Shown here piece after piece: positions 29,861 through 48,330 of a DNA stretch of 64,000 nt. Made by a program: the position numbers and the translations under genes. The DNA lies in assembly GCA_047602425.1 (NCBI GenBank), contig JASGHG010000001.1:192001-256000 (forward strand). The letters are read 5' to 3'. Numbering within the stretch: position 1 is the stretch's first letter; each line of letters opens with the position of its first letter. This stretch comes from Nibricoccus sp. Lineage in GTDB: Bacteria; Verrucomicrobiota; Verrucomicrobiia; Opitutales; Opitutaceae. Below the pieces are notes generated by a model. It saw nothing but the letters and a program-made list of their open reading frames with translations. It was not told the origin of the DNA and ran no database searches.

Positions 29861-29901
29861 CGCACCCATCACCTATCACCAATCACTCATCACCCGTTTT
29901 C

Positions 29902-31563: not shown

Positions 31564-33205
31564 GGTTCCCACCTCTTCTTCCAAGCCCAGCGAGCCGTCC
31601 GCCAGTTCGCTCTCCAGCTTCCTCAGCGATCTGCTGATCGAACAGCAGCGCCTCCAGACGCCCGTCGCGCGTTTTTCCGATGCGCACGATCGCGGCGCTT
31701 CTCCCGCGCTCGAACCGATCTACCGCGACCTCATCCCGCTTTCGAAACCCGGTCCTGGCGAACAGTACGCTTTCGAGGTCGATCTCGATGCTTGCAGCGG
31801 TTGCAAGGCCTGCGTCGCCGGCTGCCATTCGCTCAACGGCCTCGACGAAGAAGAAACCTGGCGCGACGTCGGTCTGCTCGTTGGCGGCACGCGCTCGCAT
31901 CCTTTTCAGCAGACCGTAACCAGCGCCTGTCACCACTGCGCCGATCCCGGTTGCCTCAATGGCTGCCCCGTTCTCGCCTACGAAAAAGACCCGCTCACCG
32001 GCATCGTCCGCCATCTCGACGACCAGTGCATCGGTTGCCAGTACTGCGTGCTCAAGTGCCCGTACGACGTTCCCAAATACAACGACCGTCTCGGCATCGT
32101 CCGCAAATGCGACATGTGCCACAACCGCCTCGCCGTCGGTGAAGCTCCGGCCTGCGTGCAGGCCTGCCCCACGCACGCGATCAAGATCGTCACGGTCACG
32201 ACGCACGTCAGGACCAACATAAAATTCGATACTTCGAAATTTCTGCCCGGCGCGCCGTCCCCCGACTACACACAGCCCACCACGCGCTACATTTCGAAAA
32301 GACCGCTGCCCGCCGAAGTGATTGCCGCCGACGCCGCCACGCTCCGCCCCCAGCATCCGCACTGGCCACTCGTGTTCATGCTCACGTTCATGCCGATGGC
32401 GGTCGGTTGCTTTAGTCTCTCTACTTTCTTCCCCGCATGTTCCACTGTGCTCGCGTTAACCGGCTGGCTCGCCGGCGCGGCCGGTCTGTTCACGAGCGTT
32501 TTCCATTTGGGCAAGCCGCTCCGCGCCTGGCGCGTTTTCCTCGGCCTGCGCACCTCCTGGCTCTCCCGCGAAGCCGTTATCTTTGGCGCCTGGTTTGGCC
32601 TCGCCACCGTCGCCGCCGCACTCTCACTCGCAGCGCTTCTCCCCACTGACACCATCCCAACTTTCGCCGCTCCGATCTACTCGCTCCTCGCTCCCCATTC
32701 CGCGCTCCTGACGCTCGTCACAGCCGCCGTCGGCCTCGTCGGCATCTTCTGCTCGTCGATGATCTACATCGATACCCGTCGCGAACTCTGGCGCGCCTCG
32801 CAGACGCTTCCGCGTTTCTTCGGCACGGGTCTCGTACTCGGTTTCGCGACACTCGTCGCCGCTTCGCCGACTATCCCGCACATTTTCGTGCTGCTTGCGA
32901 CAATCCTTCTCAAGCTCTCCGTCGAGGCCCGCGTCCTGCGGCCGCTCGATGAGGACGACGAGACTCCCACCGCCGCTCGCAAAACCGCGCAGATGCTCGC
33001 CGGTCCACTTCGCGTCGTCCACGGCTTGCGCATCGTCAGCGCCCTTGCCGCTACGCCCCTCGCTTTGCTCGTGAGCTATGGCCAGTTGCCCGCAGTTTTT
33101 TCGTGGGCCATTCTGCCTCTCCTTATCGCCAGCGAATTGGCCGAGCGCTACCTTTACTTCCGTGCCGTCGTCGCCCCCAAAATGCCCGGCGTCATCGCCA
33201 AATAA
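31553..33205 (+). CDS. Fusion of a DmsB-like 4x[4Fe-4S] domain and a DmsC/YnfH membrane anchor
   Basis: [36 protein letters not shown]...CVQACP; then HLGKP.RAW, SWLSRE, ERYLYF TM domain. Confidence 0.85.
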
Positions 33206-33221
33206 TTTTCCCTCTCGCACT

Positions 33222-35483
33222 ATGTTCCCCCAGATTGACGACCTTCTTCATGCCCGCCAGGGTCCGATGACGAGCGAGCTCGTGCTTCGTCCCGGCGATT
33301 TCGGCCTCGGTCGCATTCCCGCCCGGCTCAAGCCCGCCGCGACGACCGACATGGTCTGCGGTTTTTGCAGCACCGGTTGTTCGCTCAAGATTCACCTCAA
33401 CGAACGCGGCGAGGCTATCAATCTCACCACCAATCCCAATTATCCCGTCAATCGCGGCATGGCTTGCCCAAAAGGTTGGGAAGCCCTCACGCCGCTCGCC
33501 GCGCCCGACCGCGCCACCACGCCGCTTCTACGAAATCCCGCCACCGGCAAACTCGAACCGGTCGATTGGCCCACCGCCCTCGCCGCGATGGTGAAAAACT
33601 TCAAAGGCATTCAGGAACGTCACGGTAAAACATCCCTCTCCTTCCTCAGCACCGGCCAGATTGTGATGGAGGAAATGGCCCTCCTTGGCGCTCTCGCGAA
33701 GTTCGGCATGGGCATGCTCCACGTCGATTCCAACACGCGTCAGTGCATGGCCACCTCGCACGTTGCCTACAAGCAGTCGTTCGGCTTCGACGCGCCTCCC
33801 TTCACCTACAAAGACTTTGAGGAGAGCGATGCTCTTATCTTTATCGGGGCCAACCCGTGCATCGCCCACCCGATCATGTGGCAGCGCGTGATGATGAACA
33901 AACGCAATCCCGAGATCGTCGTCATCGACCCGCGCCGCACCGAGACGGCCATGGTCGCCAAGATGCACCTGCCAATCAAACCGAAGAGCGACCTCGTTCT
34001 CCTTTACGGTCTCGCGAATCTGCTCATCGAACGCGGCGCGGTGAAACAGGACTTCATTGACGCCCACACAACGAACTTCGCGGAGTTCGCCACCTTCGCG
34101 AGACAGTTCACTTTGGAGCGCACCTCCGCCGAGTCTGGTATCGACGTCGCCACGCTCAAACGTCTCGCCGAGATCATCGCCACGCGCGAACGCGTTTCCT
34201 TTTGGTGGACAATGGGCGTTAACCAGGGCCACGAATCCACCCGCACTGCGCAGGCCATCATTAATCTCGCGCTGATGACCGGCAACATCGGCCGCCCCGG
34301 CACCGGCGCCAACTCCATCACCGGCCAATGCAACGCCATGGGTTCGCGCCTCTTTGGCAACGCCACGTCGTTGCTCGGTGGATACGATTTTACCAAGGCC
34401 GAGCACCGGGCTCATGTCGCCAAAACTCTCGGTATCGACAACGCCCTCATCCCCGACCGTGGCAGCCTCGCCTATGACCAGATCATCGACGGCATCGACA
34501 AGGGCGATATCCGCGGCCTCTGGGTCATCGCCACCAACACCGCCCACTCGTGGGTGAACCAGAAAAAATTTCCCGAGCTGCGCAAAAAACTCGATTTTCT
34601 CGTCGTGCAGGACATGTACACCACGACCGAAACCGCGCGCCTCGCCGACCTCGTCCTACCCGCCGCCGGCTGGGGCGAAAAGGAGGGCGTCCTCATCAAC
34701 TCCGAACGCCGCCTCGGCATCGTGAAAAAAGTTTGCCGTGCACCCGGCCAGGCCCTCAGCGATTTCGCCATCTTCAAACTCGTCGCCGAAGCCTGGGGTT
34801 GCGGCCACCTCTTCAAGAAATGGTCTTCGCCCGAGGCCACGTTTCAGATTCTCAAGGAACTCTCCCGCGGCCAGCCATGCGACTTTACCGGCATCAGCAG
34901 CTACGAACACCTCGACCGCGCCGGCGGCATCCAGTGGCCGTTTACCGACAAAGACGCCATTGCTCCGACGCCCGCCTCCCCGTCTTCAACTTCCACTTCC
35001 ACACCTAAATCAACCTCCGCTCATACCTCGCGGGAGCGGAGGCTCTTCGCCGACGGAAAATTTTTCACGCCCGACCACCGCGCGAAGTTTCTCTTCGATT
35101 CGCCGCGCCCCATGCCCGAGTTGCCCGATGCCGAGTACCCGATGCTCCTCCTCACCGGCCGAGGTTCGTCCGCGCAGTGGCACACCGGCTCGCGCACCGA
35201 CAAAAGCGACGTCCTCCGCAAACTCGCCCCGCGCGAACTCTACGTGGAGATCAATCCCATCGATGCCGACCGCCTTCGAATTTCCCCCAACGAACTGGTT
35301 CGAATCCGGTCCCGTCGCGGCGAAACCGATGCCCTCGCGCTCATCACCAGCACCGTGCAGCCCGGCCAAGTGTACCTGCCGATGCATTTCGACACCGTCA
35401 ACTGCCTGACCTTCCCCGCCTTCGATCCCCACTCCCGGCAGCCCAGTTACAAAGCCTGCGCCGTCAAAGTCACACGCCGATAG
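33222..35483 (+). CDS. nasA: Assimilatory molybdopterin nitrate reductase catalytic subunit (NasA/NarB-like)
   Basis: CGFCSTGC...CPKG FeS motif, NTRQCMAT Mo-Cys, [24 protein letters not shown]; no Tat signal. Confidence 0.9.
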
Positions 35484-35574: not shown

Positions 35575-36156
35575 TCAGCGGCAATCCTCGGGCGAATTCC
35601 AATTGGCGAAGAAACGACGTTCGGCGGCACTCACGGTGCGCAGCCGCACGAGTTTTTTCTGCTCCAGCTTTCGAACCAATCGTTGCAGCGAAAACTCGCG
35701 GGCCTGGATCGCCGCTATCACTTCCGCCGCCGCTTCTTTTGGGTAAACCGCCGCCAACGGTTCAGCCGAACCATCGATCACCGGGACAATTCCGCAACCA
35801 GATTCTGCGTCTGCCGTAAGGGCACTAAGATAGGCTGGCGTCATCGTCGGCATGTCAACGGCCAGCACAAGGCACAGCGGTAGTTGCAATTCCACGAAAC
35901 AAGCCGCCAGTCCGCCCATCGGCCCACAATCTTTCTGCAGATCCGAAATCTCCCGCGCACCGGGCAAACCGTATTTTTTCCCCGCGCCGACAGACAAAAA
36001 TACGTCGGTCGCGCCAGCTACCCACAATGTCTCGAACGCCCGTTCCAACAACGTGCGTCCGTCCTCCAGCGTCAGCAACGCCTTGTCGCGGCCCATGCGC
36101 GTCGAGCGGCCGCCGGCCATCATGACGCCAGTAAAGGCGATTTTGGCGTCACTCAC
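35575..36156 (-). CDS. mobA: Molybdenum cofactor guanylyltransferase
   Basis: MAGGRSTRMGRDKA, GPMGGL, AVDMP, EPLAAVY, NWNSPED; GTG start. Confidence 0.9.
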   Translation of the reverse strand: MSDAKIAFTGVMMAGGRSTRMGRDKALLTLEDGRTLLERAFETLWVAGATDVFLSVGAGKKYGLPGAREISDLQKDCGPMGGLAACFVELQLPLCLVLAVDMPTMTPAYLSALTADAESGCGIVPVIDGSAEPLAAVYPKEAAAEVIAAIQAREFSLQRLVRKLEQKKLVRLRTVSAAERRFFANWNSPEDCR

Positions 36157-36607
36157 GGCGCAGCACTCCGTCCGTGACGATTTTGCAGCGCAGGCCACCG
36201 CGGCCTTTCAACCACTCCTCGGCGCCAGAACCAACCGCTTGATCCATCCAATGACACGGTTTGCATTCGCCCGTGCCTTCAAGAGTCACGCCTTGCAGTG
36301 AAAATTGTTTCCCGATCAGCGCATCAAGATCAAGTCCCTCGACAACGATGTTCCGGCGCAGTACCGAGGGAGAAAGCTCCGGTTTGCCCTGCGACTGACG
36401 CAGCGCGTCGAACGTTTCCCAGGAAAACAGCGTGAGTTGCCCTTTGTAGTCTTCCTTGAAATCGAAAAATCGGTCCCCGCGGAGCCCGCGTCCCGCAACA
36501 CACTCGACCGAATCGACCTCGACAATGGCGTGCTCGCCCGCCGGCTGGCCGTGATGGCCAAAGTAATTATGACCGGGCGATATGAAGATGTGCCGAATGC
36601 ACGACAT
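36149..36607 (-). CDS. MOSC domain protein
   Basis: GLRGDRF, RRNIVVEG, CKPCHWM, GRGGLRCKI. Confidence 0.8.
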   Translation of the reverse strand: MSCIRHIFISPGHNYFGHHGQPAGEHAIVEVDSVECVAGRGLRGDRFFDFKEDYKGQLTLFSWETFDALRQSQGKPELSPSVLRRNIVVEGLDLDALIGKQFSLQGVTLEGTGECKPCHWMDQAVGSGAEEWLKGRGGLRCKIVTDGVLRRE

Positions 36608-36633
36608 GGACCGATAACGTTGTGGGATTTTTC

Positions 36634-36960
36634 TCAACCCGCAACCCCGGAGCCCATCGCTTCATCAAGTGAAATGCGAACCAACCGCACGCCTCCCGAC
36701 GTCGCGAGCAAGGTGTCGCACCATTCCTGGTTTTCGTAACGGTAGCGCACCTGTACGCCGCGAAACGCACCCGATGCAAGCCCTGTCCGAGCCGCCTCAA
36801 GATCGATTCCGCGATCGGACGCATACGCTTGCGGCCCGCCTTTCGGGAGCACTGCGAGAAGCTGCGTGCACTGGGCGAGATCGCGAAAGAGCGCCTCCAG
36901 CGTCGGAGCGTCGAGCACGGTTTGTTGTAGCGCTGGCAACTTCGGCGCGGGCTCAGACAT
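36634..36960 (-). CDS. Hypothetical protein in the nap operon
   Basis: ATG preceded by GGAGGAGG; overlaps the upstream ferredoxin stop; VQVRYRY..WCDTL. Confidence 0.6.
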   Translation of the reverse strand: MSEPAPKLPALQQTVLDAPTLEALFRDLAQCTQLLAVLPKGGPQAYASDRGIDLEAARTGLASGAFRGVQVRYRYENQEWCDTLLATSGGVRLVRISLDEAMGSGVAG

Positions 36961-37423
36961 AGGAACCTCCTCCTCCCGCCAAATGTGGAAATGGCGACGA
37001 CGCACTCGAATTCGAACTATCTACTACCGCCAGTTTCATGCCAGGCGGACGCGGCACGAGTCGAATCGCGTTGTCCGGAGCCGGGCAAACCTCATGGCAA
37101 ACACGACAACCCGTACAAGCATCAGCCACGACACGAGGCAAGCCGTGTTCCATTTTGATCGCTCCATTGACGGGACAGCGCTCGAAGCAAATAGAACAAC
37201 CCGGGCCTTGATATGCCAGGCAGTGCCGACCGGCAATCACCGCAATCTGGGCTCGCGGTTCTGTAACCGTATTTTCACTACTCGATGACTCCGGAACCTT
37301 CGCGTTCGGAATCGCCGCCTGTTGAAAAGGTCGGAAAAACCGACTGAACATTTCGCGACGAGTAAGTGGTTTGCCGTGTTGCTGCGCAGCCATGGGCGAA
37401 ACGTGGTCAATTCGGGAGGCCAT
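36953..37423 (-). CDS. 2x[4Fe-4S] ferredoxin resembling the C-terminal half of NapG / NapF
   Basis: RREMF N-terminal motif; CLAYQGPGCSICFERCP and CTGCRVCHEVCP; start may be 37393. Confidence 0.75.
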   Translation of the reverse strand: MASRIDHVSPMAAQQHGKPLTRREMFSRFFRPFQQAAIPNAKVPESSSSENTVTEPRAQIAVIAGRHCLAYQGPGCSICFERCPVNGAIKMEHGLPRVVADACTGCRVCHEVCPAPDNAIRLVPRPPGMKLAVVDSSNSSASSPFPHLAGGGGSYV

Positions 37424-37456
37424 GCAAATGATACCGGCTGTCCGAGGGCGTTGAGT

Positions 37457-38329
37457 TCAATTGGTGATAGTCGTTTTCCAATCCGCCGCAGGCAATGGAG
37501 GCGGAAGGCCGCTCGCAAGCCGGCTGTCGAGCTCGGCGTTGACCGCATGACATTGTGTGCAGCTCTGCCGGTTCGGATGAGAGGTGCGCAACGCAGCCGT
37601 TCCGCCCGGACCGTGACAGCTCATGCAGTTGTCGCGCATCCAAGTCGTATGCGGCATCGTTGGCGGAGCACCCAAGTAGGCGCGCTTGCCTGGACCGGAC
37701 TGTTCTTTGCCGACAAACTTGTTGCCCTCGGAAAGTGCCTCATGCCGCGCCACCCAAGTACTCGTCGGTCCGACGGAGGAAACATGGCACTGAATGCAAT
37801 TTGTGTACGCCGGATGACTGACCAGCGGCACCTGCTGATTACCGATTTTTGTTGGTTTACCATGGCACTCCATACACGCGGCCGGGGTGAGTTGGTCGAG
37901 TGGGTGCGGCGCAATGGGCGGCGCACCGTCGTACTGGCGGCGGGCGGTGCGCGTGTTTCTGAGTCGGACCAGATCGGTCGTCGAGAGCACGGCCGGGATG
38001 TATTGCGCCTCTGTTTTGGGGCGCGTGAGTGTCGCCAAGTGCACGACCCAGTCCTTGTTCGGGCGGAGCGTGCCGTCCTTAAGATCCGCGTAACGTGGCG
38101 CCACCGGCACGTCCACTTCGGGCAGGGTTGCTTCAGTCGCAACCGGAGTCGCTTTCGCCGTGGATTGCAGCATGTCGGCGGTCGCAAGTTCGGTCTGACG
38201 CAAGCCCATGAAGAATCCGCTCAAGCCGAGCGTCAGCGAGATCAGACTGGCCACAACGGCCAGTTTGCGTCCCGTGCCGGGTTTTGAAGTTTCGGGTTTT
38301 TCGGACATGGCGGTTTCAGACTCAGCCAT
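37457..38329 (-). CDS. napB: NapB-like cytochrome c, tandem-duplicated (4 CxxCH)
   Basis: N-terminal TM; YDGAPPIAPH-CMECH-CIQCH then YLGAPPTMPH-CMSCH-CTQCH; directly after napA. Confidence 0.75.
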   Translation of the reverse strand: MAESETAMSEKPETSKPGTGRKLAVVASLISLTLGLSGFFMGLRQTELATADMLQSTAKATPVATEATLPEVDVPVAPRYADLKDGTLRPNKDWVVHLATLTRPKTEAQYIPAVLSTTDLVRLRNTRTARRQYDGAPPIAPHPLDQLTPAACMECHGKPTKIGNQQVPLVSHPAYTNCIQCHVSSVGPTSTWVARHEALSEGNKFVGKEQSGPGKRAYLGAPPTMPHTTWMRDNCMSCHGPGGTAALRTSHPNRQSCTQCHAVNAELDSRLASGLPPPLPAADWKTTITN

Positions 38330-40757
38330 GAGGAACTGTCTTCTCTGGAACCAGCATGGCGGCCGACTTGCGGTAAACTTTCACGGCGCACTTTTTGTAG
38401 TCTGGTTCTTTGGAGATCGGACATGGTTCACCCAGAGTGACGTCGTTGATCAGCAGGCGCTCATCGAAGAACGGCACAAACACCGTGCCGCGCGGCGGCT
38501 TGGCGCGGCCATTGATCCAGACGGGCAATTCGATCTTGCCGCGACGCGATTCGATCACGGCCATGTCGCCGTTTCCGAGTCCGGCGGCAGCAGCGTCCTG
38601 TGGGTTCATTTCCACATAGGCGTTGGGCATGGCGTTGCGCAACTGGGGCACGCGCATCGTCAACGTGCCGGTGTGCCAATGTTCAAGTACGCGCCCGGTG
38701 CAAAGCCACGTTGGGAAATTCGGATCGGGTTCTTCCGCAGCCGGCTCATAGGGACAAAACCAAATGAGCGCTTTGTCGTCCTTGGTCACCGAATGATAGA
38801 ATTGGATTCCCTTGCCCTTGGCCACAAAGGGGTCGGTCCCTTCGGTGAAACGGAACTTGGTTTCATTCCACGAACCATCCGCCCCCTGCACCACCGGCCA
38901 GCGCAAACCGCGGGCCTTCGCGAGCACGTCGTACGGCGCAAGATGCTTGTGCTTGTAGAAGGAGAAAAGACGGTATTCCTCGTAGAGCGCCTTGTCGACG
39001 TTCACGTCGTAGTAGTGCGAAAAATCCCAAGCCGGCACTTCCGCGCCTTTATCATCTTTGACGGTGAAGATAAAATTGCCGTCGCGATCCTTCATGCCGG
39101 GATGGCCCAGTTCGAAGAGTCGGCGCGCCACCGCGATCGTGATCCACGCATCGGGACGGGCCTGGCCGGGAGGTTCAACCTGTTTGAACCATTGCTGCGT
39201 GCGGCGTTCCGAATTTCCGTAGATGCCGTTTTTTTCCACCCACAGCGCGGCCGGCAAAACGAGATCGGCCAGTTCGGTCGTCGCCGTCGGATAGACTTCC
39301 GAAACGATGAGAAATTTGTCCTCCAAGCCCTGCTTCGCTTTAAAAAGTTTGTGGAGATTCGGGAGCGATTGCCCGGGATTTGTCACCTGAACGATGACCG
39401 TATGGATGTCGCCGCCTTTGTCGGTCGGCGTGCAGAATTTTTCGAACAATTGCACCGTATGATAACCGGGCTTCGGATTGATGCGGCCTTCCGGAAGTTT
39501 CCAGATTTCCTCCGATTCCTTGCGGTGCTCCGCGTTGGCAACAAGACGTCCGCCGGGAAGAAAATGGCACATCGTGCCCACTTCGCGCGCCGTACCGCAG
39601 GCAGACGGTTGCCCCGTGAGCGATGTCGGGGCGTCGCCCGGCCGGCCAAAATGGCCGCTGAGCAAATGAATCGAGTGTACCAGGCGGTTGATCGCCGTGC
39701 CCCGCGTATGCTGGTTCATGCCCATGCACCAAAGGCTGGTGATGCGAATGTCGCGCCTGGCGAAAAGTTCGCCCAACATGCGAATCTTCGCGGCGGAAAC
39801 GCCGGAAATTTTTTCCACAAACTCCGGCGTGTATTCCTCGACCGCCTTCCGATATTCGTCGAACGAAATTGGCTTGCCGAGCAGATCGAGCGGTTTGTTG
39901 TCGCCGCGGAAATTGCAGTATTTTTCGACAAAGGCTTTGTCCCACGCGTCGTTTTTCAGGAGCAGGTGCGCAATGCCATTCGCGATCGCCATGTCACTCT
40001 GCGGACGAAATTCCAGGTACTCGTCTGCAAACTCCGTCGAGCGCGTGCGTCGCGTGCCGATATCGATGATTTGTACCTTCTGCCCTCTGGTTAGGCGATC
40101 GATGATGCGTGAAAACAACACCGGATGCATCTCGGCTGGATTGTTGCCCCACAGAATGATCACGTCCGCCGCATCGAGGTCGTCGTAACAACCGGCCGGT
40201 TCATCCACGCCGTAAACCGAAAGATAACCCGTGACCGCCGAAGCCATGCAAAGGCGCGCATTTGGTTCAATATGATTGTTAGCCAAGCCACCCTTCATGA
40301 ATTTCTGCGCCGCATAACCCTCCGGAATCGTCCACTGGCCGCTGCCGTAAAAGGCGAAGCCTTTCGGATCCTTCAGCACGCGTTTCGCGATGGTGTCGAT
40401 GGCCTCCTCCCACGAAATTGGCTCTAGCTGACCGTTGCGGCGCAACATCGGCGTGGTCAGGCGATCTTTGCCGTAAAGGATGCCACCGACGTGGTAGCCC
40501 TTCACGCAGAGAAGGCCCTTGTTCACCTCCGCGAGCTGCTCGCCCTGAATTGCGACAACACGACCGTCCTTCACGCCTACGCGCACGTGGCAGCCCGTGC
40601 CGCAGAAACGGCAAGGGGCCTTGTCCCACTTGATCCCATCGGGCGTAGTGGTAGCGGGAGCGGAAATACTTTCAACAGCGCCGAGACGCTGGGCGATCAC
40701 CGCGGTGGCGGCGGCCATGGCGGTGTTACGAAGAAATTCGCGTCGATCCATATTCAT
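38322..40757 (-). CDS. napA: Periplasmic nitrate reductase catalytic subunit
   Basis: RREFL Tat signal, WDKAPCRFCGTGC, GSGQWT, NARLCMASAV, SLTGQPSACGTAREVG, ISKEPDYKKCAV. Confidence 0.95.
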   Translation of the reverse strand: MNMDRREFLRNTAMAAATAVIAQRLGAVESISAPATTTPDGIKWDKAPCRFCGTGCHVRVGVKDGRVVAIQGEQLAEVNKGLLCVKGYHVGGILYGKDRLTTPMLRRNGQLEPISWEEAIDTIAKRVLKDPKGFAFYGSGQWTIPEGYAAQKFMKGGLANNHIEPNARLCMASAVTGYLSVYGVDEPAGCYDDLDAADVIILWGNNPAEMHPVLFSRIIDRLTRGQKVQIIDIGTRRTRSTEFADEYLEFRPQSDMAIANGIAHLLLKNDAWDKAFVEKYCNFRGDNKPLDLLGKPISFDEYRKAVEEYTPEFVEKISGVSAAKIRMLGELFARRDIRITSLWCMGMNQHTRGTAINRLVHSIHLLSGHFGRPGDAPTSLTGQPSACGTAREVGTMCHFLPGGRLVANAEHRKESEEIWKLPEGRINPKPGYHTVQLFEKFCTPTDKGGDIHTVIVQVTNPGQSLPNLHKLFKAKQGLEDKFLIVSEVYPTATTELADLVLPAALWVEKNGIYGNSERRTQQWFKQVEPPGQARPDAWITIAVARRLFELGHPGMKDRDGNFIFTVKDDKGAEVPAWDFSHYYDVNVDKALYEEYRLFSFYKHKHLAPYDVLAKARGLRWPVVQGADGSWNETKFRFTEGTDPFVAKGKGIQFYHSVTKDDKALIWFCPYEPAAEEPDPNFPTWLCTGRVLEHWHTGTLTMRVPQLRNAMPNAYVEMNPQDAAAAGLGNGDMAVIESRRGKIELPVWINGRAKPPRGTVFVPFFDERLLINDVTLGEPCPISKEPDYKKCAVKVYRKSAAMLVPEKTVPHG

Positions 40758-41059
40758 TTTAAAGGGGTCTCTTGAGAAAAATCTCCAGAACATGTTTCCG
40801 CCGCTGCCTCCGGGACAACCTCAACAAAGGTCACATCGACAAAGGCCACACCCGGCAGCGTTTCCAGCCAGGCATGCACTTCGCGAGGGGAACCAGTTTC
40901 AACCACCACGGGCAGCCAGGGACCAAACGCTTCGCCGACCTCAATCTCCGGGCGTGATCGCAAAGCCTCATATACCTCCTCCTGCAATTGAAGCTCATCG
41001 CGCATACGGATCACCAAACTGACAACGACAGGGGTCTGGGGTGTTTCCAACGGGGTCAT
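40754..41059 (-). CDS. napD: NapD-like chaperone
   Basis: 101 aa ferredoxin-like pattern (SLVI...IEV...VVVET...LETLPGV); ATGA overlap with napA. Confidence 0.6.
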   Translation of the reverse strand: MTPLETPQTPVVVSLVIRMRDELQLQEEVYEALRSRPEIEVGEAFGPWLPVVVETGSPREVHAWLETLPGVAFVDVTFVEVVPEAAAETCSGDFSQETPLK

Positions 41060-41090
41060 GACACGACGGTGAATTGAAAAATCGCCCTAC

Positions 41091-41118
41091 TCAAGATTAA
41101 ACTACCGTTTTATCTTGA
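41091..41118. promoter_or_regulatory. 28-bp palindromic operator between the divergent nap and cytochrome-nrfCD operons
   Basis: TCAAGATTAAAC-TACC-GTTTTATCTTGA, 11/12 arm match. Confidence 0.65.
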
Positions 41119-41152
41119 TTTATTCGCCAAAGCTTTCGATGCTTTCCGCGCT

Positions 41153-41803
41153 TTGAAGGCCCCACGGATCATTCCTCCCCTACTGGTGCTTGCCGCTGCA
41201 TCCACCGCTCTAGCCTTGTGGCTCCGCGGAACGCCGCCGGCTCCCGCTCCTACTGCTGCCGCCCCTTCCTCCGGCGCGAGCGCCATCGTTCGTCATGCGG
41301 TGACGATCAAGCCCGGCCCCGCTACACCAGTCGTACTCACCAATGCGCTCAACCGCGCCGGCGACCCCGTTCCTGTTTCGTGCTCCACCTGCCATTCCAC
41401 GCGCACGCCAAATGTCGAACGTCGTTCCGCTGCCGAACTCACCGAGTTCCACCAAGGACTCGCTTACAAGCATGGCGATCTTTCCTGCCTTTCCTGTCAC
41501 AATTCCGCCAACTACGATACGCTGCGCAAAGCGGATGCCACGTCCATTCCCTACCCCAATGTCATGGAGCTTTGCGGCCAATGCCACGGCCCGCAGCTTC
41601 GCGATTACCGGGCCGGTGCACATGGCGGCATGAACGGCCATTGGGACCTGACCAAGGGTCCACGGGTACGAAACAACTGTGTCGATTGCCACGATCCCCA
41701 TGCTCCCGCCTATGCCCGCGTAAAACCGGTCTTCGCTCCGGTTGATCGTGGCGCACGCCAGCAAGAACAGCGCGCGGCCAAACATGAGCAAGCCCATGAG
41801 TGA
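41153..41803 (+). CDS. Membrane-anchored/periplasmic tetrahaem cytochrome c
   Basis: N-terminal hydrophobic segment; CSTCH, CLSCH, CGQCH, CVDCH; TTG start. Confidence 0.8.
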   Translation: MKAPRIIPPLLVLAAASTALALWLRGTPPAPAPTAAAPSSGASAIVRHAVTIKPGPATPVVLTNALNRAGDPVPVSCSTCHSTRTPNVERRSAAELTEFHQGLAYKHGDLSCLSCHNSANYDTLRKADATSIPYPNVMELCGQCHGPQLRDYRAGAHGGMNGHWDLTKGPRVRNNCVDCHDPHAPAYARVKPVFAPVDRGARQQEQRAAKHEQAHE

Positions 41804-42740
41804 GCAAAACCAATTCTCTTCGCCAAACAACGACGCTCCGGGAGGGATGTCCCGCCGCACCGCGTTGAAAATCGCCGGCGCGACACTCGGCGCCGCCGCC
41901 TTCGCCAAGGCCGTTGCTCCCATTACACAGTGGGCCGCCGACCAGTCGGTCGATGAGTTTCTCCAAAAACACTACCGCGAACTTTCGCCCGACGACATGG
42001 CCAGAGTCATCGAGCGTTTGGAGAAAGAAACCAAGGAAGATTACGGTGCGGACGTACACATTTCCGATCCCAAGCCCCAGCCCGGCGTCAAATTTGGCTA
42101 TGCGCTCAATTTGTCGATTTGCGTCGGTTGTCGTCGCTGTGCCGAGGCCTGCCACAAGGAAAACAATCACGACCGGCCTTCCGGCAACTCGTACATTCGC
42201 GTGCTCGAAATGCAAAAGGGCACCATCGACCTCGAACAGGGCAATGCCACTTACAAGCACGCCGTTCCCGACCCACAAAAATATTACATGCCCGTGCAGT
42301 GCCAGCAATGCGACAATCCTCCGTGTGTGCATGTCTGTCCGGTCGAAGCCACTTGGAAGGAAAAAGACGGCATCGTGGTCGTCGATTACAACTGGTGCAT
42401 CGGCTGCCGCTATTGCGAGGCCGCATGTCCTTATCACGCCCGGCGCTTCAATTGGACCAAGCCGCAGGTTCCGACCGAGGAGATCACGCCCGTGCAGGCC
42501 TATCTATCGAATCGCATGCGTCCTCAGGGGGTGATGGAGAAATGCACATTCTGTCTGCATCGCACGCGTGAAGGCCGGCTGCCCGCCTGTCTTGAGGCCT
42601 GCCCGACCGGCGCCCGCGTTTTTGGCAATCTTCTCGATCCGAATTCCGAAATTCGCTGGGTCCTCGCCAATAAGCGCGTCTTCGTTCTCAAGGAGGAACT
42701 CGGGACCAAGCCGAGCTTCTTCTACTTCTTCGACAAATAA
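41796..42740 (+). CDS. NrfC/DsrO-like 4x[4Fe-4S] protein (Tat-exported)
   Basis: SRRTALK; CVGCRRCAEAC, CQQCDNPPCVHVCP, CIGCRYCEAACP, EKCTFC...CLEACP; start 41784 or 41796. Confidence 0.85.
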   Translation: MSEQNQFSSPNNDAPGGMSRRTALKIAGATLGAAAFAKAVAPITQWAADQSVDEFLQKHYRELSPDDMARVIERLEKETKEDYGADVHISDPKPQPGVKFGYALNLSICVGCRRCAEACHKENNHDRPSGNSYIRVLEMQKGTIDLEQGNATYKHAVPDPQKYYMPVQCQQCDNPPCVHVCPVEATWKEKDGIVVVDYNWCIGCRYCEAACPYHARRFNWTKPQVPTEEITPVQAYLSNRMRPQGVMEKCTFCLHRTREGRLPACLEACPTGARVFGNLLDPNSEIRWVLANKRVFVLKEELGTKPSFFYFFDK

Positions 42741-42769
42741 ACCGCGCCGCTCCCCTTCCACCTCCGTTG

Positions 42770-44038
42770 ATGCCCGCCCAATCATCCATTTCCCGACCGC
42801 GTTTCGAACCCGATCCAACTCGCGGGCATTTCTCCAACTATGTCCGTTTCCTCTGGCGCGCAGTTGTGGACGCCACGGATGGAAACGGCTGGTTTTATGC
42901 GTGGATGACCTTGCTCTCCGCGGTTGCGCTCGTCGGCCTCAGTGCATGGGCCACACAAATCCGCCATGGCATGGCGGTCACCGCGATGACCGACCACGTT
43001 TCTTGGGGTCTCTACATCGCCAATTTTACCTTCATGGTCGGGCTTGCGGCTGGCGGTGTGATGATGGTTATACCCGCGTATCTCTATCACGACGACGAGA
43101 TGCACGACGTCGTCATCGTCGGTGAAATGCTCGCGATTGCCGCCATCGCCATGTGCATCGCCTTCGTCGTTGTCGACCTCGGCCGACCCGATCGTGCCTG
43201 GCATTTGATCCCTGGCATCGGTGTTTTCCACTGGCCGATGTCGATGCTCACTTGGGACGTACTCGTGCTTAACGGTTACCTCGTCATCAACCTGCATATC
43301 TGCGGCTACCTGCTTTATATGCGCTTTATCGGGCAGCGTCCCAACCCGCGCTGGTACGTGCCGTTTGTTTTCATCTCCATCGTCTGGGCGATCTCCATTC
43401 ACACCGTCACCGCGTTTCTCTACTGTGGTCTTGGCGGCCGGCCATTTTGGAACACCGCGCTTCTCGCGCCGCGCTTTCTCGCCTCCGCTTTCGTCTCCGG
43501 CCCGGCCTTTATCATCGTCGGTCTGCAAATTCTCCGCCGTGTCGCCAACGTCCGGATCGGCGACCGCCCGCTGTCTATTTTGACCAACATCATGCGGGTC
43601 ACGATCCTCATCAACCTGCTCATGGTCGCTTCCGAAGTGTTCACCGAATTTTACAGCGGCACGAGCCACACCTCTGCGGCACGGTATCTTTATTTCGGGC
43701 TGCACGGCGCCCACGGGCTGGTGCCTTGGATCTGGACGTCGGTTGTGTTCGGTGTCGTTTCCGCGATTTTGCTGCTGCGGCCCGGCGTGGTTGCCCACAA
43801 AACCCAACTCACGATTGCCTGCGTGTTGTCGTTTGTCGCTGTTTGGATCGAAAAAGGCATGGGCCTGATCATCCCCGGCTTCATTCCATCGACGTTGCAC
43901 GAGATCGTCGAATATTCGCCCAGTCTCGTCGAATGGCAGATCATGGCCGGCATCTGGGCCATGGGCCTGCTCATCTACACAGTGGCGTTGAAGATCGGTC
44001 TGCCGGTCTTGACGACACCCCATACTACCAAACACTGA
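42770..44038 (+). CDS. NrfD/PsrC-family quinol-interacting membrane subunit
   Basis: WGLYIANFTF, DLGRPDR, HTVTAFL, RPFWN, about 10 TM. Confidence 0.85.
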   Translation: MPAQSSISRPRFEPDPTRGHFSNYVRFLWRAVVDATDGNGWFYAWMTLLSAVALVGLSAWATQIRHGMAVTAMTDHVSWGLYIANFTFMVGLAAGGVMMVIPAYLYHDDEMHDVVIVGEMLAIAAIAMCIAFVVVDLGRPDRAWHLIPGIGVFHWPMSMLTWDVLVLNGYLVINLHICGYLLYMRFIGQRPNPRWYVPFVFISIVWAISIHTVTAFLYCGLGGRPFWNTALLAPRFLASAFVSGPAFIIVGLQILRRVANVRIGDRPLSILTNIMRVTILINLLMVASEVFTEFYSGTSHTSAARYLYFGLHGAHGLVPWIWTSVVFGVVSAILLLRPGVVAHKTQLTIACVLSFVAVWIEKGMGLIIPGFIPSTLHEIVEYSPSLVEWQIMAGIWAMGLLIYTVALKIGLPVLTTPHTTKH

Positions 44039-44045
44039 GCCCATC

Positions 44046-44459
44046 ATGCTTCGCTGTGGAAAAACCGCCCAGACCGCCATCGCCGCCATGAGCGCGCTTG
44101 CCGAACGCTATGACGCCGGCAAAACCGTCCTCAGCTCGCTCGACATCGCCAAAGACCGCAACCTTCCCCAACCGCTTATCGCGAAACTGCTCACCACGCT
44201 CTCCACCGGCGGACTCGTCGATGGTACCCGCGGCCCTGGCGGTGGCTACTGGCTTGCCAAAGCGCCTTCCCGCATTTCCCTCGCCGACATCGCCGAGCTT
44301 TTTGAAAAAGAGTCCGAGGGGATCATGTGCCCGTTCGGCCCCGATTGGTGCGGCAAGGGCGAGCCCTGTCCGCTTCACAACGAACTCGTCGCCATGAACG
44401 AGCAGTGGGAAACCTTCATGCGTAAAACCACGCTGGCCGTCTTTTCGGCAAAAAAATAG
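44046..44459 (+). CDS. Rrf2 family transcriptional regulator with three Cys
   Basis: GLVDGTRGPGGGYWLA, ISLADI, CPFGPDWCGKGEPCPLH. Confidence 0.9.
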   Translation: MLRCGKTAQTAIAAMSALAERYDAGKTVLSSLDIAKDRNLPQPLIAKLLTTLSTGGLVDGTRGPGGGYWLAKAPSRISLADIAELFEKESEGIMCPFGPDWCGKGEPCPLHNELVAMNEQWETFMRKTTLAVFSAKK

Positions 44460-44514: not shown

Positions 44515-44751
44515 ATGCGCATCCTCTTTTTCGGACAACTTAAAACCATCACCGGTCAGCCGGAGATCCAGTTGTCCTTCGCCGCGGGAAACGCAGAAGA
44601 CCTGTGGCAGCGGCTACTCGCTTTACATCCCGGCCTCGCCACGGTCCGCAAACAGGTCCGACTCGCACAAAACGGCGAATTTGCCACAGCCTCCGCCCGT
44701 TTCTCCGACGCCGACGAGATTGCCCTGATTCCGCCTGTATCCGGAGGTTGA
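44515..44751 (+). CDS. moaD: Molybdopterin synthase sulfur carrier
   Basis: LFFGQLK; C-terminal IPPVSGG. Confidence 0.9.
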   Translation: MRILFFGQLKTITGQPEIQLSFAAGNAEDLWQRLLALHPGLATVRKQVRLAQNGEFATASARFSDADEIALIPPVSGG

Positions 44752-44753
44752 AT

Positions 44754-46376
44754 ATGGAGATCGATATCGCCATTTCCTCCGCCTGCCTCGATCAACACCC
44801 GCTGCTTTCCGACCGCGTAACCGACCAAACGGGCGCCGTCGCCGAGTTCAAGGGCTTGGTCCGTCGCGAGGAAGCAGGCCAACCGATCGCCGCACTTGAA
44901 TACGAGGCCTACCAACCGATGGCTGAAAATACAATGCGACGCATCGTCGAAGATCTCGGCAAAACTCATTCCTGCGACCGCGTCGTAATCGTCCATCGCG
45001 TCGGCATGGTGCCCGTGGGCGAAGCCGCGATTATCGTTCGCGTCTGCTCGAAACACCGCGCCGAGGCTTTCGCGCTACTGAGCAGTTTTATGGATCGGCT
45101 CAAACAGGACGTACCGATCTGGAAACTCCGCGGCGTGCCGGCAGAACAGAAAAACGACCCAGTCACCAGCAGCAAAAATCCGCCCGGCTTCAATGAAATC
45201 CTTGCCACCGTCGAAGCCGCCTGCAAACCGCTCGCGACGGAACGTGTTTCGCTCCAGCACGCGGTTGGTCGAATCCTCCGTGAGACCATAACCGCACCGG
45301 AGGACCAACCCGCCTTTGCTCGCTCTGCGGTCGATGGCATCGCTATACGGCTGGACGACTCGTCCGACACTTTCACCGTCGTCGGCGAAATTCGCGCCGG
45401 AGACTGGCATCCGCGCCAACTTCAACCCGGTGAAGCCGTGCGCATCTCCACCGGCGGCGCCCTGCCTTCCGAGGGACTTCAGGTCGTGATGATCGAAGAC
45501 GTTGAGTTTAATGGCAATCGTTGCCGGCTTCTGCGCCGAAACACCGATACCTACGTTCGCGCGCGCGGCGAGGATGTGAAATGCGGCGAAATGCTCCTCG
45601 CCCCCGGCAAGTCTCTCACTCCCGGGGCAATTTCGCTCCTCGCCGGAATCGGCGCCACCGAACCACTCGTCACCCGCACGATCCAAATCGTCCATTTCAC
45701 CACGGGCGACGAGATCGTTTCTCCCGAGCGCCAGCCAGGCCCCGGCCAGATTCGCGATTCCAATTCCCCGCTCGTTCATGCTTTCTTTGCGCAACCAGGT
45801 CTGTGCGCCAAACATCACCATTTGCCCGAAAAATTCAACGAGGCCAAAGCTACGCTCGCCCGGCACGCCACTGAAATTGCCGCCGCCGACATTCTGATTT
45901 TTTCCGGCGGAGCCAGCGTTGGGGCGCACGATCATACACCACAACTGCTCGCTGAACTCGGCTTCGAGCTGAAAATCCACGGTACCCGCCTGCGCCCGGG
46001 CAAACCCATGCTTTTTGCGACCTTCGGGCAGCGTCTCGCTTTTGGTCTGCCGGGCAATCCCCTCGCCCACTTCGTCGGCCTTTTTAGTTTCGTCCGCGCC
46101 GCTGTTGCCCGTCTCAGTGGCGTGGCGGCTCCCACCCTTCAGCACGCAACGCTCTCTTCCGCCCTGGCGGCCGGCGGCAATCCCCGTGAAACCCTCTGGC
46201 CCGCCTTGCTCACTCTCAGTCAAGGCAGCCTGACAGCCGAACCTCTCCGTTGGAGTAATTCCGGTGACCTGGCCGCCCTCTCGCGGGCCAATGGTTTAAT
46301 CCTCGTGCCACCTGGCACCGGCTTGCTCGAACGCCATTCCACAATTAACGTCCTGCCGTGTTCCTCGATCCTTTGA
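44754..46376 (+). CDS. moaE-moeA: MoaE-MoeA fusion (molybdopterin synthase catalytic subunit plus molybdotransferase)
   Basis: LEYEAYQPMA, HRVG, HRAEAF, LKQDVPIWK (MoaE); SAVDG, RISTGG, TGDEI, SGGASVG, PGKP, GLPGNP (MoeA). Confidence 0.85.
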   Translation: MEIDIAISSACLDQHPLLSDRVTDQTGAVAEFKGLVRREEAGQPIAALEYEAYQPMAENTMRRIVEDLGKTHSCDRVVIVHRVGMVPVGEAAIIVRVCSKHRAEAFALLSSFMDRLKQDVPIWKLRGVPAEQKNDPVTSSKNPPGFNEILATVEAACKPLATERVSLQHAVGRILRETITAPEDQPAFARSAVDGIAIRLDDSSDTFTVVGEIRAGDWHPRQLQPGEAVRISTGGALPSEGLQVVMIEDVEFNGNRCRLLRRNTDTYVRARGEDVKCGEMLLAPGKSLTPGAISLLAGIGATEPLVTRTIQIVHFTTGDEIVSPERQPGPGQIRDSNSPLVHAFFAQPGLCAKHHHLPEKFNEAKATLARHATEIAAADILIFSGGASVGAHDHTPQLLAELGFELKIHGTRLRPGKPMLFATFGQRLAFGLPGNPLAHFVGLFSFVRAAVARLSGVAAPTLQHATLSSALAAGGNPRETLWPALLTLSQGSLTAEPLRWSNSGDLAALSRANGLILVPPGTGLLERHSTINVLPCSSIL

Positions 46377-46846
46377 AAAGCAAGCGTCCCTCGTCCGCCC
46401 GCGCCAAACTTTCGCACCTCGACGCTGAGGGAAATGCGCGTATGGTCGCCGTCGGTGCGAAGCCTGTTCAACATCGCCTCGCCGTGGCGCAGGGACGCCT
46501 CGTTTGTTCCCCCGACACTTTGCGCCTCCTCAAACGCAAGGCCTTGCCCAAAGGCGACGTTCTCACCGTCGCGCAAATCGCCGGCGTCCAGGCCGCCAAG
46601 GCCACCGCGACCCTCATTCCGCTTTGCCATCCGCTGCCACTCAGTCACGTCGAAATTAATTTCACCGTTCGCCGCGCCAGCATCGAAATTATCTGCAAAG
46701 TCGAAACCCACGCGCAAACCGGCGTCGAAATGGAGGCACTCACCGGCGTCTCAGTCGCGGCCCTCACGCTCTACGATATGTGCAAGGCAGTAGACAAATC
46801 GATGTCGATCGACGACGTTCGCGTGGTTCAAAAGATCAAAAAATGA
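46358..46846 (+). CDS. moaC: Cyclic pyranopterin monophosphate synthase
   Basis: LSHLD, KGDVL, LIPLCHP, TGVEMEALT, LYDMCKAVDK. Confidence 0.95.
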   Translation: MFLDPLKSKRPSSARAKLSHLDAEGNARMVAVGAKPVQHRLAVAQGRLVCSPDTLRLLKRKALPKGDVLTVAQIAGVQAAKATATLIPLCHPLPLSHVEINFTVRRASIEIICKVETHAQTGVEMEALTGVSVAALTLYDMCKAVDKSMSIDDVRVVQKIKK

Positions 46847-47352
46847 AAATCGGACGCATCACTGTCAGCGATCGCGCTTCCGCCGGGATTTACACCGACC
46901 TTGGCGGTCCCGAGATCGAGCGCGTGCTCCGCGAGCACCTCGGCGAAGGTCACGAATTTGTGAACGTCGTCATTCCCGACGAAAAGGATCTCATCACCGA
47001 AAGATTGCGTCTTCTCTGCCGGCAGGATGGCTGTTCTCTCGTCGTCACGACCGGCGGCACCGGTGTCACACCGCGCGATGTTACGCCCGAGGCGACCCGC
47101 GCTGTATTGGACAAAGAACTACCGGGCTTCGGCGAAGCCATGCGCCTGGGAAATTTCGAGCAGGTCCCCACATCCATCCTCTCCCGCGCCACCGCCGGCA
47201 TCCGCGGCCAGTGCCTCATTATCAATCTCCCGGGCAAGCCCAAGGCCATTGGCGAATGCCTCACTTTGCTCATGCCCGCGATCCGCGAGGCACTTGCCCA
47301 TCTGCAAGGTCGCGATCCTCACGCAGCCGAACCTGCCGCCAAAACCAAGTAA
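46843..47352 (+). CDS. mogA: Molybdopterin adenylyltransferase
   Basis: TVSDRAS.G.Y.D.GGP, TTGGTG, RDVTPEAT, NLPGKPK. Confidence 0.9.
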   Translation: MKIGRITVSDRASAGIYTDLGGPEIERVLREHLGEGHEFVNVVIPDEKDLITERLRLLCRQDGCSLVVTTGGTGVTPRDVTPEATRAVLDKELPGFGEAMRLGNFEQVPTSILSRATAGIRGQCLIINLPGKPKAIGECLTLLMPAIREALAHLQGRDPHAAEPAAKTK

Positions 47353-47355
47353 ACC

Positions 47356-48330
47356 ATGGACGCCCACGGCCGCATCGTCGATTATCTGCGCATCTCGGTC
47401 ACCGACCGGTGCAACGAGCGCTGCACCTATTGCATGCCCGAGGGCTACAAAGGCTGGGAACAAAAACCCGATCACCTCACCGCCGACGAAATCGTGCGCG
47501 TGGTGCGGGTGGCCGCTGGTTTGGGTTTTCGCAAATTTCGTCTGACCGGCGGCGAACCGCTCGTCCGTCGCGATCTCGTCGACATTGTTCGCACCATTTC
47601 GGCCATCGAAGGTGTCGAGGCCATTGGACTTTCCACCAATGGCACGAAGCTCGCCGCCCACGCCGAGCCCTTGCGAGCCGCCGGTTTGCGCACGGTCAAC
47701 GTCAGCCTCGATGCACTCGATCCGGCCCTTTATCGCCGCGTCACGGGTGGAGATGTTAACGCCGTGATCTCCGGCATCCGCGCCGCGGTGGCCGCGGGTT
47801 TCGAGCGCGTGAAGCTCAATTGCGTGCTCATGCGCGGCGTGAACGAAAACGAACTCTGGCCGCTCACACAATTCGCCGCCGAGCACAATTTGCCTCTGCG
47901 CCTCATCGAACTCATGCCGCTTACCCGCACCGACGTGCTGAGCGATGCCAACTTCATGCCCGTCGGCGAGGCCATGAAATTGCTCTCGCAACACGACGAA
48001 CTGGTTCCACAGCAAGACGCCCGCATCGGGTGGGGCCCGGCAAAATACTATCAGCTCAAAAACAGCGGCGCGCTCGTCGGCTTCATCGGAGCGCTGACGA
48101 ATCTGCATTTCTGCGAGACCTGCAATAAAATGCGCCTCACCGCCGACGGCAAAATCCGGCCCTGCCTTGGCGATCAAGGCGAGTTCGACCTCCGCACCGC
48201 TCTGCGCAATTCCACCTCCGACGACGCCCTGCGCGCGGCCTTCCTCACCGCATTGGAACGCAAACCGCTCGAACACCAATTCCGCAGCAACTACACCCCC
48301 TGCCGCCCAATGACGGCCATTGGTGGTTAA
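47356..48330 (+). CDS. moaA: GTP 3',8-cyclase (radical SAM)
   Basis: CNERCTYC, LTGGEP, FCETCNKMRLT..CL, C-terminal IGG. Confidence 0.95.
   Translation: MDAHGRIVDYLRISVTDRCNERCTYCMPEGYKGWEQKPDHLTADEIVRVVRVAAGLGFRKFRLTGGEPLVRRDLVDIVRTISAIEGVEAIGLSTNGTKLAAHAEPLRAAGLRTVNVSLDALDPALYRRVTGGDVNAVISGIRAAVAAGFERVKLNCVLMRGVNENELWPLTQFAAEHNLPLRLIELMPLTRTDVLSDANFMPVGEAMKLLSQHDELVPQQDARIGWGPAKYYQLKNSGALVGFIGALTNLHFCETCNKMRLTADGKIRPCLGDQGEFDLRTALRNSTSDDALRAAFLTALERKPLEHQFRSNYTPCRPMTAIGG

Follow-up and report, generated by a model that had tools for sequence, protein, structure and literature searches.

The 64,000-nt stretch of the Nibricoccus sp. genome analysed here (contig JASGHG010000001.1, positions 192,001 to 256,000; hereafter the window) carries an operon for the periplasmic nitrate reductase Nap, back to back with an operon encoding a tetrahaem cytochrome, an iron–sulfur (FeS) protein and an NrfD-family membrane protein (hereafter the trio). 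We consider it likely, from gene content, linkage and structure prediction, that the trio is a third quinol-input route to Nap, in place of NapC or NapGH. The locus is real and far beyond chance, and its most likely interpretation is such a route built from a known type of module and a doubled NapB, with a predicted link between the operons and a shared putative operator. The two divergent operons would form one menaquinol:nitrate electron-transfer chain, in which electrons from menaquinol would enter at NrfD, travel along the four FeS-protein clusters, and move via the anchored tetrahaem cytochrome and the double NapB, likewise anchored in the membrane, to NapA, which would reduce nitrate to nitrite. 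An FeS-type Rrf2 regulator, acting at a single palindrome in the 93-bp spacer, would control both operons. Quinol oxidation, the direction of flow, the order of the carriers and the pairing of regulator with operator are what we infer from homologues. The features concerned are the following.

37457..38329, minus strand: double NapB, membrane-anchored tetrahaem cytochrome (PF03892, 34 bits; tandem NapB repeat)
38322..40793, minus strand: napA, periplasmic nitrate reductase exported by twin-arginine translocation (Tat) (PRK13532, TIGR01706; probable start 40757)
40754..41059, minus strand: napD chaperone, sequence-divergent (homologues match PF03927; profile matches 2jsx)
41091..41118, no strand: 28-bp palindrome (12-4-12) in the 93-bp spacer, putative operator of Rrf2 for both operons
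41153..41803, plus strand: membrane-anchored tetrahaem cytochrome c, CbcS-like (four CxxCH; one N-terminal hydrophobic helix)
41796..42740, plus strand: Tat-exported four-cluster [4Fe-4S] protein of DsrO/PsrB/NrfC type (16 Cys, RR motif)
42767..44038, plus strand: NrfD-family, DsrP-type integral membrane quinol-binding subunit (DsrP, 428/350 bits; PF03916, 119 bits)
44046..44459, plus strand: Rrf2-family regulator with three Cys (PF02082, 90 bits; TIGR00738, 87/73)

The trio, NapA and the double NapB

The source genome is a single contig of 5.16 Mb (99.97% complete) that encodes menF and menB; its closest relatives by NrfD are Opitutaceae and other Verrucomicrobiota. On the minus strand the gene order is napD, napA, the napB-like gene, a ferredoxin gene, an orphan open reading frame (ORF), a MOSC gene and mobA. 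On the plus strand it is cytochrome, FeS protein, NrfD and rrf2, followed by five molybdenum-cofactor genes. The starts of napD and the cytochrome gene lie 93 bp apart. Family-profile scans of the locus found no napC, napH, nrfA or second molybdo-subunit in either divergent operon; dsrM, dsrK and a trihaem dsrJ were absent from the locus, which places it outside DsrMKJOP. A preliminary description of the sequence had given the same genes, positions, strands, gap and absences. It had also used the lack of a CxxCK motif as a test for NrfA, which is invalid here because the NrfA encoded elsewhere in the same genome has five CxxCH and no CxxCK.

The four CxxCH motifs of the trio cytochrome are accompanied by eight His residues that are invariant in 65 homologues, and its haems are all predicted to be bis-His. 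Its model (predicted local distance difference test, pLDDT, 86.2) gave an uninformative fold search, with a best Z of only 2.8. The best family for the FeS protein is DsrO (193/200 bits), with NrfC at only 131/378 and PsrB (2vpw_B) at E 3e-38; 15 of its 16 Cys and the RR motif are conserved in 122 homologues, and C112 in 71%. The FeS and membrane subunits had been described as NrfC and NrfD, which is right for the family type but not for NrfC and NrfD proper, DsrO and DsrP being closer at the scores given. Together the three proteins have the make-up of the Cbc4/DsrOhPh type (anchored bis-His tetrahaem cytochrome, four-cluster FeS protein and NrfD/DsrP, with no catalytic subunit), the ligation being read from the eight invariant His.

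The residues that mark a quinol site in the NrfD family (acidic or His, Ser and Asp, with an Arg/Lys gate) are present in the window's NrfD. Aligned to ActC of Rhodothermus, with quinol-site numbering from PMC8076601, its D137, S159 and D164 correspond to His139, Ser164 and Asp169, and its E362 and K363 to Glu394 and Arg395. (Papers are cited by identifier, and what is said of them, absences included, holds for the parts of each that were available.) The Lys at the Arg395 position is shared with DsrP1, and the position of ActC Asp253 is not kept. Y83, D137, S159, D164, E362 and K363 are invariant in 101 of 101 homologues; conserved polar residues of this kind occur across the NrfD family (PMC8076601).

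NapA scored 901.6 bits with PRK13532 (just under the cut-off of 904) and 866/931 with TIGR01706, and it carries the twin-Arg, FeS and Mo-ligand motifs expected of a NapA. The NapD chaperone is recognised through its homologues: the window's own protein has no Pfam match, 14 of 40 aligned homologues match PF03927 at E ≤ 0.1 (best 9e-8), and the family profile matches E. coli NapD (2jsx) at E 0.012. The protein previously called NapB proved to be NapB-like, its family profile matching the NapB structures 3ml1_B, 1ogy_B and 1jni_A, but it is not the ordinary soluble dihaem NapB of canonical NapAB. It has 290 residues, one N-terminal hydrophobic helix and four CxxCH (kept in 120 of 122 complete homologues). 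Eight His are invariant across 65 aligned homologues, enough for four bis-His haems, and the two halves are 38% identical to each other (E 1e-9), an internal repeat. By its sequence it is a double NapB, with two NapB-like dihaem units behind a membrane helix. Fold searches with its structural model (pLDDT 73.7) were uninformative: Foldseek retrieved NapB structures at ranks 1, 5 and 6, only at E 3–7, and VIA-align matched by the N-terminal helix only.

Structure prediction connects the two tetrahaem cytochromes, and with them the two operons. A complex model of cytochrome residues 45–205 with double-NapB residues 60–275, a check proposed in the preliminary description, docked the two at a score of 0.67 (best control 0.00), which supports binding of the trio cytochrome to the double NapB. 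Of 157 solved complexes, 116 score at least this high, as do 2 of 215 mismatched pairs; these counts are approximate given the use of our own alignments. The runs share at least 84% of contacts, with a partner pLDDT of at least 66. The predicted binding segment is the N-terminal extension of the double NapB (residues 74–102, best contacts 90–102), and the interface also takes in haem motifs one and four of the cytochrome and the first one of NapB; in Geobacter CbcS, electrons leave through haem IV (10.1101/2025.04.14.648717). The score is unlikely to come from reproduction of a solved complex, because PDB matches to the cytochrome profile are all weak and short and the best contacts, at 90–102, precede the NapB-like part. 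Both N-terminal interface segments are kept in the NrfD clade of the window and replaced in trios not linked to Nap; locus L159, described below, has both altered.

Linkage to nap and a shared putative operator

We counted linkage in two samples that share 11 contigs, the best 80 of 440 NrfD relatives and the best 80 of at least 600 NapA relatives. Beside NrfD, napA was found in 70 of the 80 NrfD loci (66 on the opposite strand, four on the same strand), and NrfD was found beside napA in 71 of the 80 napA loci. All but one of the 19 unlinked loci have less than 3.7 kb of upstream flank. In 13 loci, comprising 12 of the 13 same-strand loci (L121 excluded) and L062, the order cytochrome-FeS-nrfD-(napD)-napA forms one run on one strand. 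Label shuffles on these data show clustering only. A sample of 301 genomes from the phylum contained five with the clade's napA, all five with NrfD within about 5 kb. Six others have more distant NrfD relatives (43–64%) without napA; among the contexts resolved, these are accompanied by multihaem or porin-cytochrome genes or by a dsrMKJOP-like run.

The window's NrfD belongs to a clade of 71 rows (support 100; FastTree, 131 rows, without L169, L172 and ActC), of which 70 are Nap-linked and one lies on a short contig. A first, quick IQ-TREE tree had also dropped L169 and L172, whose ORFs were badly extracted. That the trio might go with nrfA or another enzyme instead of napA, a check raised earlier, is thus not the case in this clade. 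There is a second Nap-linked clade: in a set of 14 loci, seven carry napA and double NapB, six of them as one run in the order napA-napB4-cytochrome-FeS-nrfD; its hosts are Bacteroidota, Myxococcota, Bdellovibrionota, Gemmatimonadota and Verrucomicrobiota. A Flammeovirga record has napD-napA-cytochrome-cytochrome-FeS-DsrP in one run. Cultured carriers among the loci include Roseiconus nitratireducens (L110), Pelagicoccus mobilis (L039), Persicirhabdus sediminis (L160) and Flammeovirga kamogawensis (L167). A wider set of 78 new loci included 38 that are Nap-linked, 27 that are not and 13 that were too short. In sister clades of the trio, the gene that follows directly is mostly one for an octahaem cytochrome (L192, L197, L198, L201, L203-L206, L208, L211, L214 and others). 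As judged from linkage and from these sister-clade contexts, the module is a reusable quinol-side unit, and the window's clade is tied to Nap. Locus L159, which combines a napA of the window's clade with a trio from the octahaem-linked clade, is possibly a module swap.

Three further observations concern related genomes. In one metagenome-assembled genome (MAG), the complete nap-trio locus occurs twice, on separate contigs (L008 and L009), from duplication or strain mixture. Opitutaceae NrfD paralogues of 565–583 aa have an insertion of about 150 aa in mid-protein (L169:6234-7982, L170:2781-4475, L171:7490-9235), and those of L169 and L171 adjoin decahaem-type cytochrome genes. A dsrMKJOP-like run in an Opitutaceae-family genome (L174:3478-8602, G117) lies far from the window's NrfD in trees.

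The Rrf2 protein is a probable FeS sensor. Its three-Cys motif is kept in orthologues; it scores below the NCBIfam cut-offs for IscR and SUF regulators. With a search pattern derived from the window itself, the palindrome scored in 33 of 33 spacers with an rrf2 orthologue and in two of 15 without, one of the two ending before the rrf2 position. A matrix built from 24 distinct sites in related loci, one of them nearly identical to the window's, gave a single match in the genome (40.3; next 9.7; shuffled maxima 13.6–16). Among held-out loci, with 12 duplicates removed by hand, the palindrome lay in the spacer in 14 of 19 with an rrf2 orthologue versus four of 67 without; a fifth match without rrf2, in L180, is 10 kb away and was not counted. 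Since the palindrome lies between the operons, is unique in the genome and tracks rrf2, the two operons are probably one regulon. A sigma-70 scan gave four matches where 3.7 were expected, that is, the chance level.

Other candidate donors and rival explanations

Other quinol-oxidising candidates were sought in 55 carrier genomes (53 distinct; completeness reported for five), with E. coli as the positive control. NapH (TIGR02163) exceeded its cut-off in none of the 55 (best 75.7 vs 213 bits) and NapC (TIGR02161) in none of 53, source genome included, and E. coli passed for both. The preliminary description had named napC or napGH elsewhere in the genome as the finding that would speak against the trio; neither NapC nor NapH appeared above cut-off in the carriers. 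Neither a NapGH-type nor a NapC-type input was recognised in operon or genome: the ferredoxin of the nap run has only eight Cys, NapH and NapC stay below cut-off, and the NapC-family relative NrfH is encoded elsewhere. The NapC/NirT Pfam model gave weak matches in 44 of 55 carriers (best 65 bits). NrfA is present in 36 of 53 carriers and absent from 17, and by coordinates a NapC/NirT-family match adjoins nrfA in all 36, so these matches are NrfH. Eleven of the 53, including one that is 100% complete (G138), have no NapC/NrfH-family match, and in G314 the sole NapC/NirT match is the trio's own cytochrome.

The sole nrfA match of the source genome is 2.75 Mb from the locus, beside nrfH; with no nrfA in the operon and no pentahaem NrfB, the locus is not an NrfABCD system. 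This nrfA (G000:C1:2989756-2991257; L001:5757-7258) is interrupted by a frameshift at a short run of G, some 65 codons from its start, and in the close relative G301 the frame is open. The frameshift may be either an assembly error or a recent pseudogene.

The earlier proposal that the trio is the quinol-oxidising arm for NapAB draws support from the linkage, the single-run loci, the Nap-only NrfD clade, the quinol-site motif, the lack of NapC and NapH above cut-off, the shared palindrome and the predicted complex. NrfH, alternative complex III (ACIII) and other systems in the genome speak against the trio being the exclusive donor.

Several points weigh against the proposed chain. The linkage loci are best matches, biased to close kin and not independent, and most are MAGs without reported completeness; one locus (L027) lacks napA despite 9.1 kb of upstream and 10 kb of downstream sequence. 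The trio is modular, with sister clades adjoining octahaem or porin-cytochrome genes. The complex was modelled without haems and from our own alignments, and the interface segments are replaced in the second Nap-linked clade. Covariation analysis of the cytochrome pair did not confirm the contact: of the top 100 pairs, 12% fall within the interface (against a base rate of 7.9%, with permutations giving up to 16%). The interface is not more conserved than the rest (0.55 vs 0.56; 0.42 vs 0.47). Any of four other systems of the source genome could serve as reductant of the double NapB: NrfH (TIGR03153, 167/134 bits), ACIII, a 13-haem/cytochrome b protein, and a hexahaem protein of the NapC family encoded in a decahaem-type cluster. 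All five carriers checked also have a further NrfD-family gene, which is probably ActC.

We take the 13-haem/cytochrome b protein to be CbcL-like and the hexahaem NapC-family protein, presumably, to be ImcH-like. They are encoded at G000:C1:2812848-2815109 and in the cluster at 2333140-2338560, respectively, and ACIII at 3260431-3271782; the hexahaem protein adjoins a DmsE-type cytochrome. The genome is rich in quinol-side and extracellular electron transfer genes.

The best surviving alternative, which we nevertheless hold to be quite improbable, is that the trio is a shared quinol-to-periplasm hub feeding NapA and other acceptors (NrfA, octahaem or porin-cytochrome proteins), like E. coli NrfBCD or Geobacter Cbc4. 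The partnerships of the sister clades with other multihaem proteins fit this, as do three related loci with nrfHA inside the locus (L021, L037, L121) and the transfer of electrons from CbcS to the soluble carrier PpcA (10.1101/2025.04.14.648717). However, NrfA has its own adjacent NrfH-like gene wherever it occurs in the carriers and is missing from 17 of them, the window's NrfD clade is exclusively Nap-linked, and the palindrome, found once in the genome, does not precede nrfHA.

It is very improbable that NapA is fed by NrfH, ACIII, the CbcL-like protein or the hexahaem NapC-family protein, and that the trio is co-regulated for another purpose. All four systems are in the source genome, the second NrfD-family gene recurs in the carriers checked, and ACIII-to-NapM transfer has been proposed for Caldithrix (PMC5317091), but such a donor would account neither for the trio remaining beside napA in different phyla despite inversions and changed gene order, nor for the 11 carriers that have no NapC/NrfH-family match, the complete G138 among them. 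The complex model also points to direct contact between the cytochrome and the double NapB. Least credible is direct docking of NapA on the FeS protein in the manner of PsrABC, a complex iron–sulfur molybdoenzyme (CISM), with the two tetrahaem cytochromes as a side branch: FeS and NrfD proteins usually serve as the B and C subunits in CISM enzymes (PMC8076601) and nrfD immediately precedes napD-napA in single-run loci, yet wherever there is enough flank napA is almost always followed by the double NapB, whose NapB motifs are kept, and binding is predicted between the two cytochromes.

In the cryo-electron microscopy structure of DsrMKJOP, menadiol binds DsrP near the periplasmic side, <8 Å from a DsrO cluster; DsrP has a proton path to the periplasm, and its authors see no clear structural basis for pumping (10.64898/2026.08.25.746951). 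With the quinol site and the acceptor both periplasmic, the quinol-oxidising step would most likely be electroneutral, with protons released outside and energy coming from upstream dehydrogenases, unless NrfD pumps protons. For this reason the suggestion in the preliminary description that the arrangement is possibly energy-conserving finds no support, and proton pumping or energy conservation at the NrfD step is not supported. NrfD, the FeS protein, both anchored tetrahaem cytochromes and NapA may form one stable membrane-bound quinol:nitrate oxidoreductase, although we lean slightly against it. Were this five-protein complex stable, proton pumping by NrfD would still be doubtful, and the combination of the complex (in which eight haems would link four FeS clusters to NapA) with a proton-pumping NrfD is rather improbable. 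If true, this would be a Nap that conserves energy, with carriers across Verrucomicrobiota, Planctomycetota, Myxococcota and Bacteroidota.

Neighbouring genes, related systems and implications

The remaining genes of the two runs are as follows.

35575..36198, minus strand: mobA, Mo-cofactor guanylyltransferase (PF12804, 99 bits)
36149..36637, minus strand: MOSC-domain protein (PF03473, 45 bits; found in some related loci only)
36634..37005, minus strand: conserved orphan protein, about 108–123 aa in its family, usually ending the nap run
36953..37423, minus strand: two-cluster ferredoxin, like the C-terminal half of NapG (8 Cys; NapG model 40 bits vs cut-off 269)
44515..48330, plus strand: moaD, moaE-moeA fusion, moaC, mogA and moaA, Mo-cofactor genes (55-bp gap after rrf2)

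The ferredoxin has no hydrophobic segment and is therefore probably a cytoplasmic NapF-like maturation helper; it was not detected in many related loci. The orphan protein has no Pfam or NCBIfam match and its Atlas neighbours are unnamed clusters, while homologues occur in most related loci, at the end of most nap runs of the clade. Elsewhere in the window (28034-35483, plus strand), an assimilatory-type cluster lies downstream of nitrate transporter genes. It comprises a nitrite/sulfite reductase-like ORF, a CysJ-like flavoprotein, a NasA-like molybdoprotein and a fusion of an FeS protein with a DmsC membrane anchor (31136-33205); Nas-type enzymes do not usually carry such an anchor. The ‘NapA + FeS-NrfD fusion’ of Lacipirellula (PMC6995999) would appear to resemble this cluster (31136-35483), not the cytochrome-FeS-NrfD module.

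Two described modules resemble the trio in make-up, as judged from their published descriptions. Cbc4 of Geobacter sulfurreducens (CbcS/CbcT/CbcU, GSU0068-0070) likewise combines an anchored bis-His tetrahaem cytochrome, a four-cluster FeS protein and a membrane subunit without a catalytic subunit, and is proposed to transfer electrons from menaquinol to the periplasm with exit via haem IV, but it is discussed for extracellular electron transfer via PpcA, not for Nap (10.1101/2025.04.14.648717). The sole Geobacteraceae NrfD homologue in the wider set (L267, 48%) falls outside the Nap clade. The DsrOhPh-tetrahaem locus of cable bacteria has DsrO- and DsrP-like proteins with an all-His-His tetrahaem cytochrome, apart from dsrMK; no napA link is described for it (PMC13047784), whereas the window's trio is tied to napA, double NapB and a putative Rrf2 operator. 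The DsrJOP arm of DsrMKJOP is a further close counterpart, the window's NrfD passing the DsrP model. With E. coli NrfABCD, the window shares a proposed wire of NrfD, FeS and multihaem proteins from quinol to a periplasmic nitrogen-oxide reductase; it differs in that the acceptor would be NapA rather than NrfA, an anchored tetrahaem cytochrome takes the place of pentahaem NrfB, and the sequences are of DsrO/DsrP type.

Canonical Nap systems (napEDABC, napDAGHB, napCMADGH, napAGHBFLD; PMC13223375) share with the window NapA, NapD, a NapB-type carrier, a NapF/G-like ferredoxin and Mo-cofactor genes. In contrast, the window lacks NapC and NapH, its NapB is doubled and membrane-anchored, and its probable quinol input is of NrfD type. 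The four operon types of this 2026 review all have NapC and/or NapGH, and the word NrfD is absent from the part available, as it is from that of a 2025 NapA phylogeny (PMC12769810). A cytochrome-FeS-NrfD cluster next to Nap is reported in two sentences for the MAGs OFTM8 and OFTM33, as an ACIII-like variant with a possible role in respiratory electron transfer (PMC10732223). The corresponding loci (L221 and L207) have napA, double NapB and trio, and both fall in the window's clade. As far as available, that paper does not identify the cluster as donor to Nap, and it mentions neither how widespread the cluster is nor the double NapB nor the putative operator. Beyond it, the literature searched, in which subscription journals are mostly uncovered, gave no description of an NrfD-type donor for Nap; there was no matching description in the available parts of 10.1101/2020.04.01.018762, PMC11896075, PMC6995999, PMC5673643 and PMC5317091. 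Thermogutta terrifontis was considered as a carrier of this Nap system, wrongly, as the paper describes Nar (PMC5673643).

The locus would add a further nap architecture to the four types reviewed, one that is common in bacteria of the Planctomycetes–Verrucomicrobia–Chlamydiae group and Myxococcota and also occurs in Bacteroidota; all these groups abound in sediments, wastewater and soils. To a pipeline that requires napC or napGH, such Nap systems would look incomplete, and annotation of the trio's NrfD gene as the sulfate-reduction protein DsrP can mislead metabolic calls. For modules of the Cbc4/DsrOhPh type, this would define an acceptor and offer quinol-dependent nitrate reduction as a simple assay, one that could bear on whether NrfD-type subunits pump protons.

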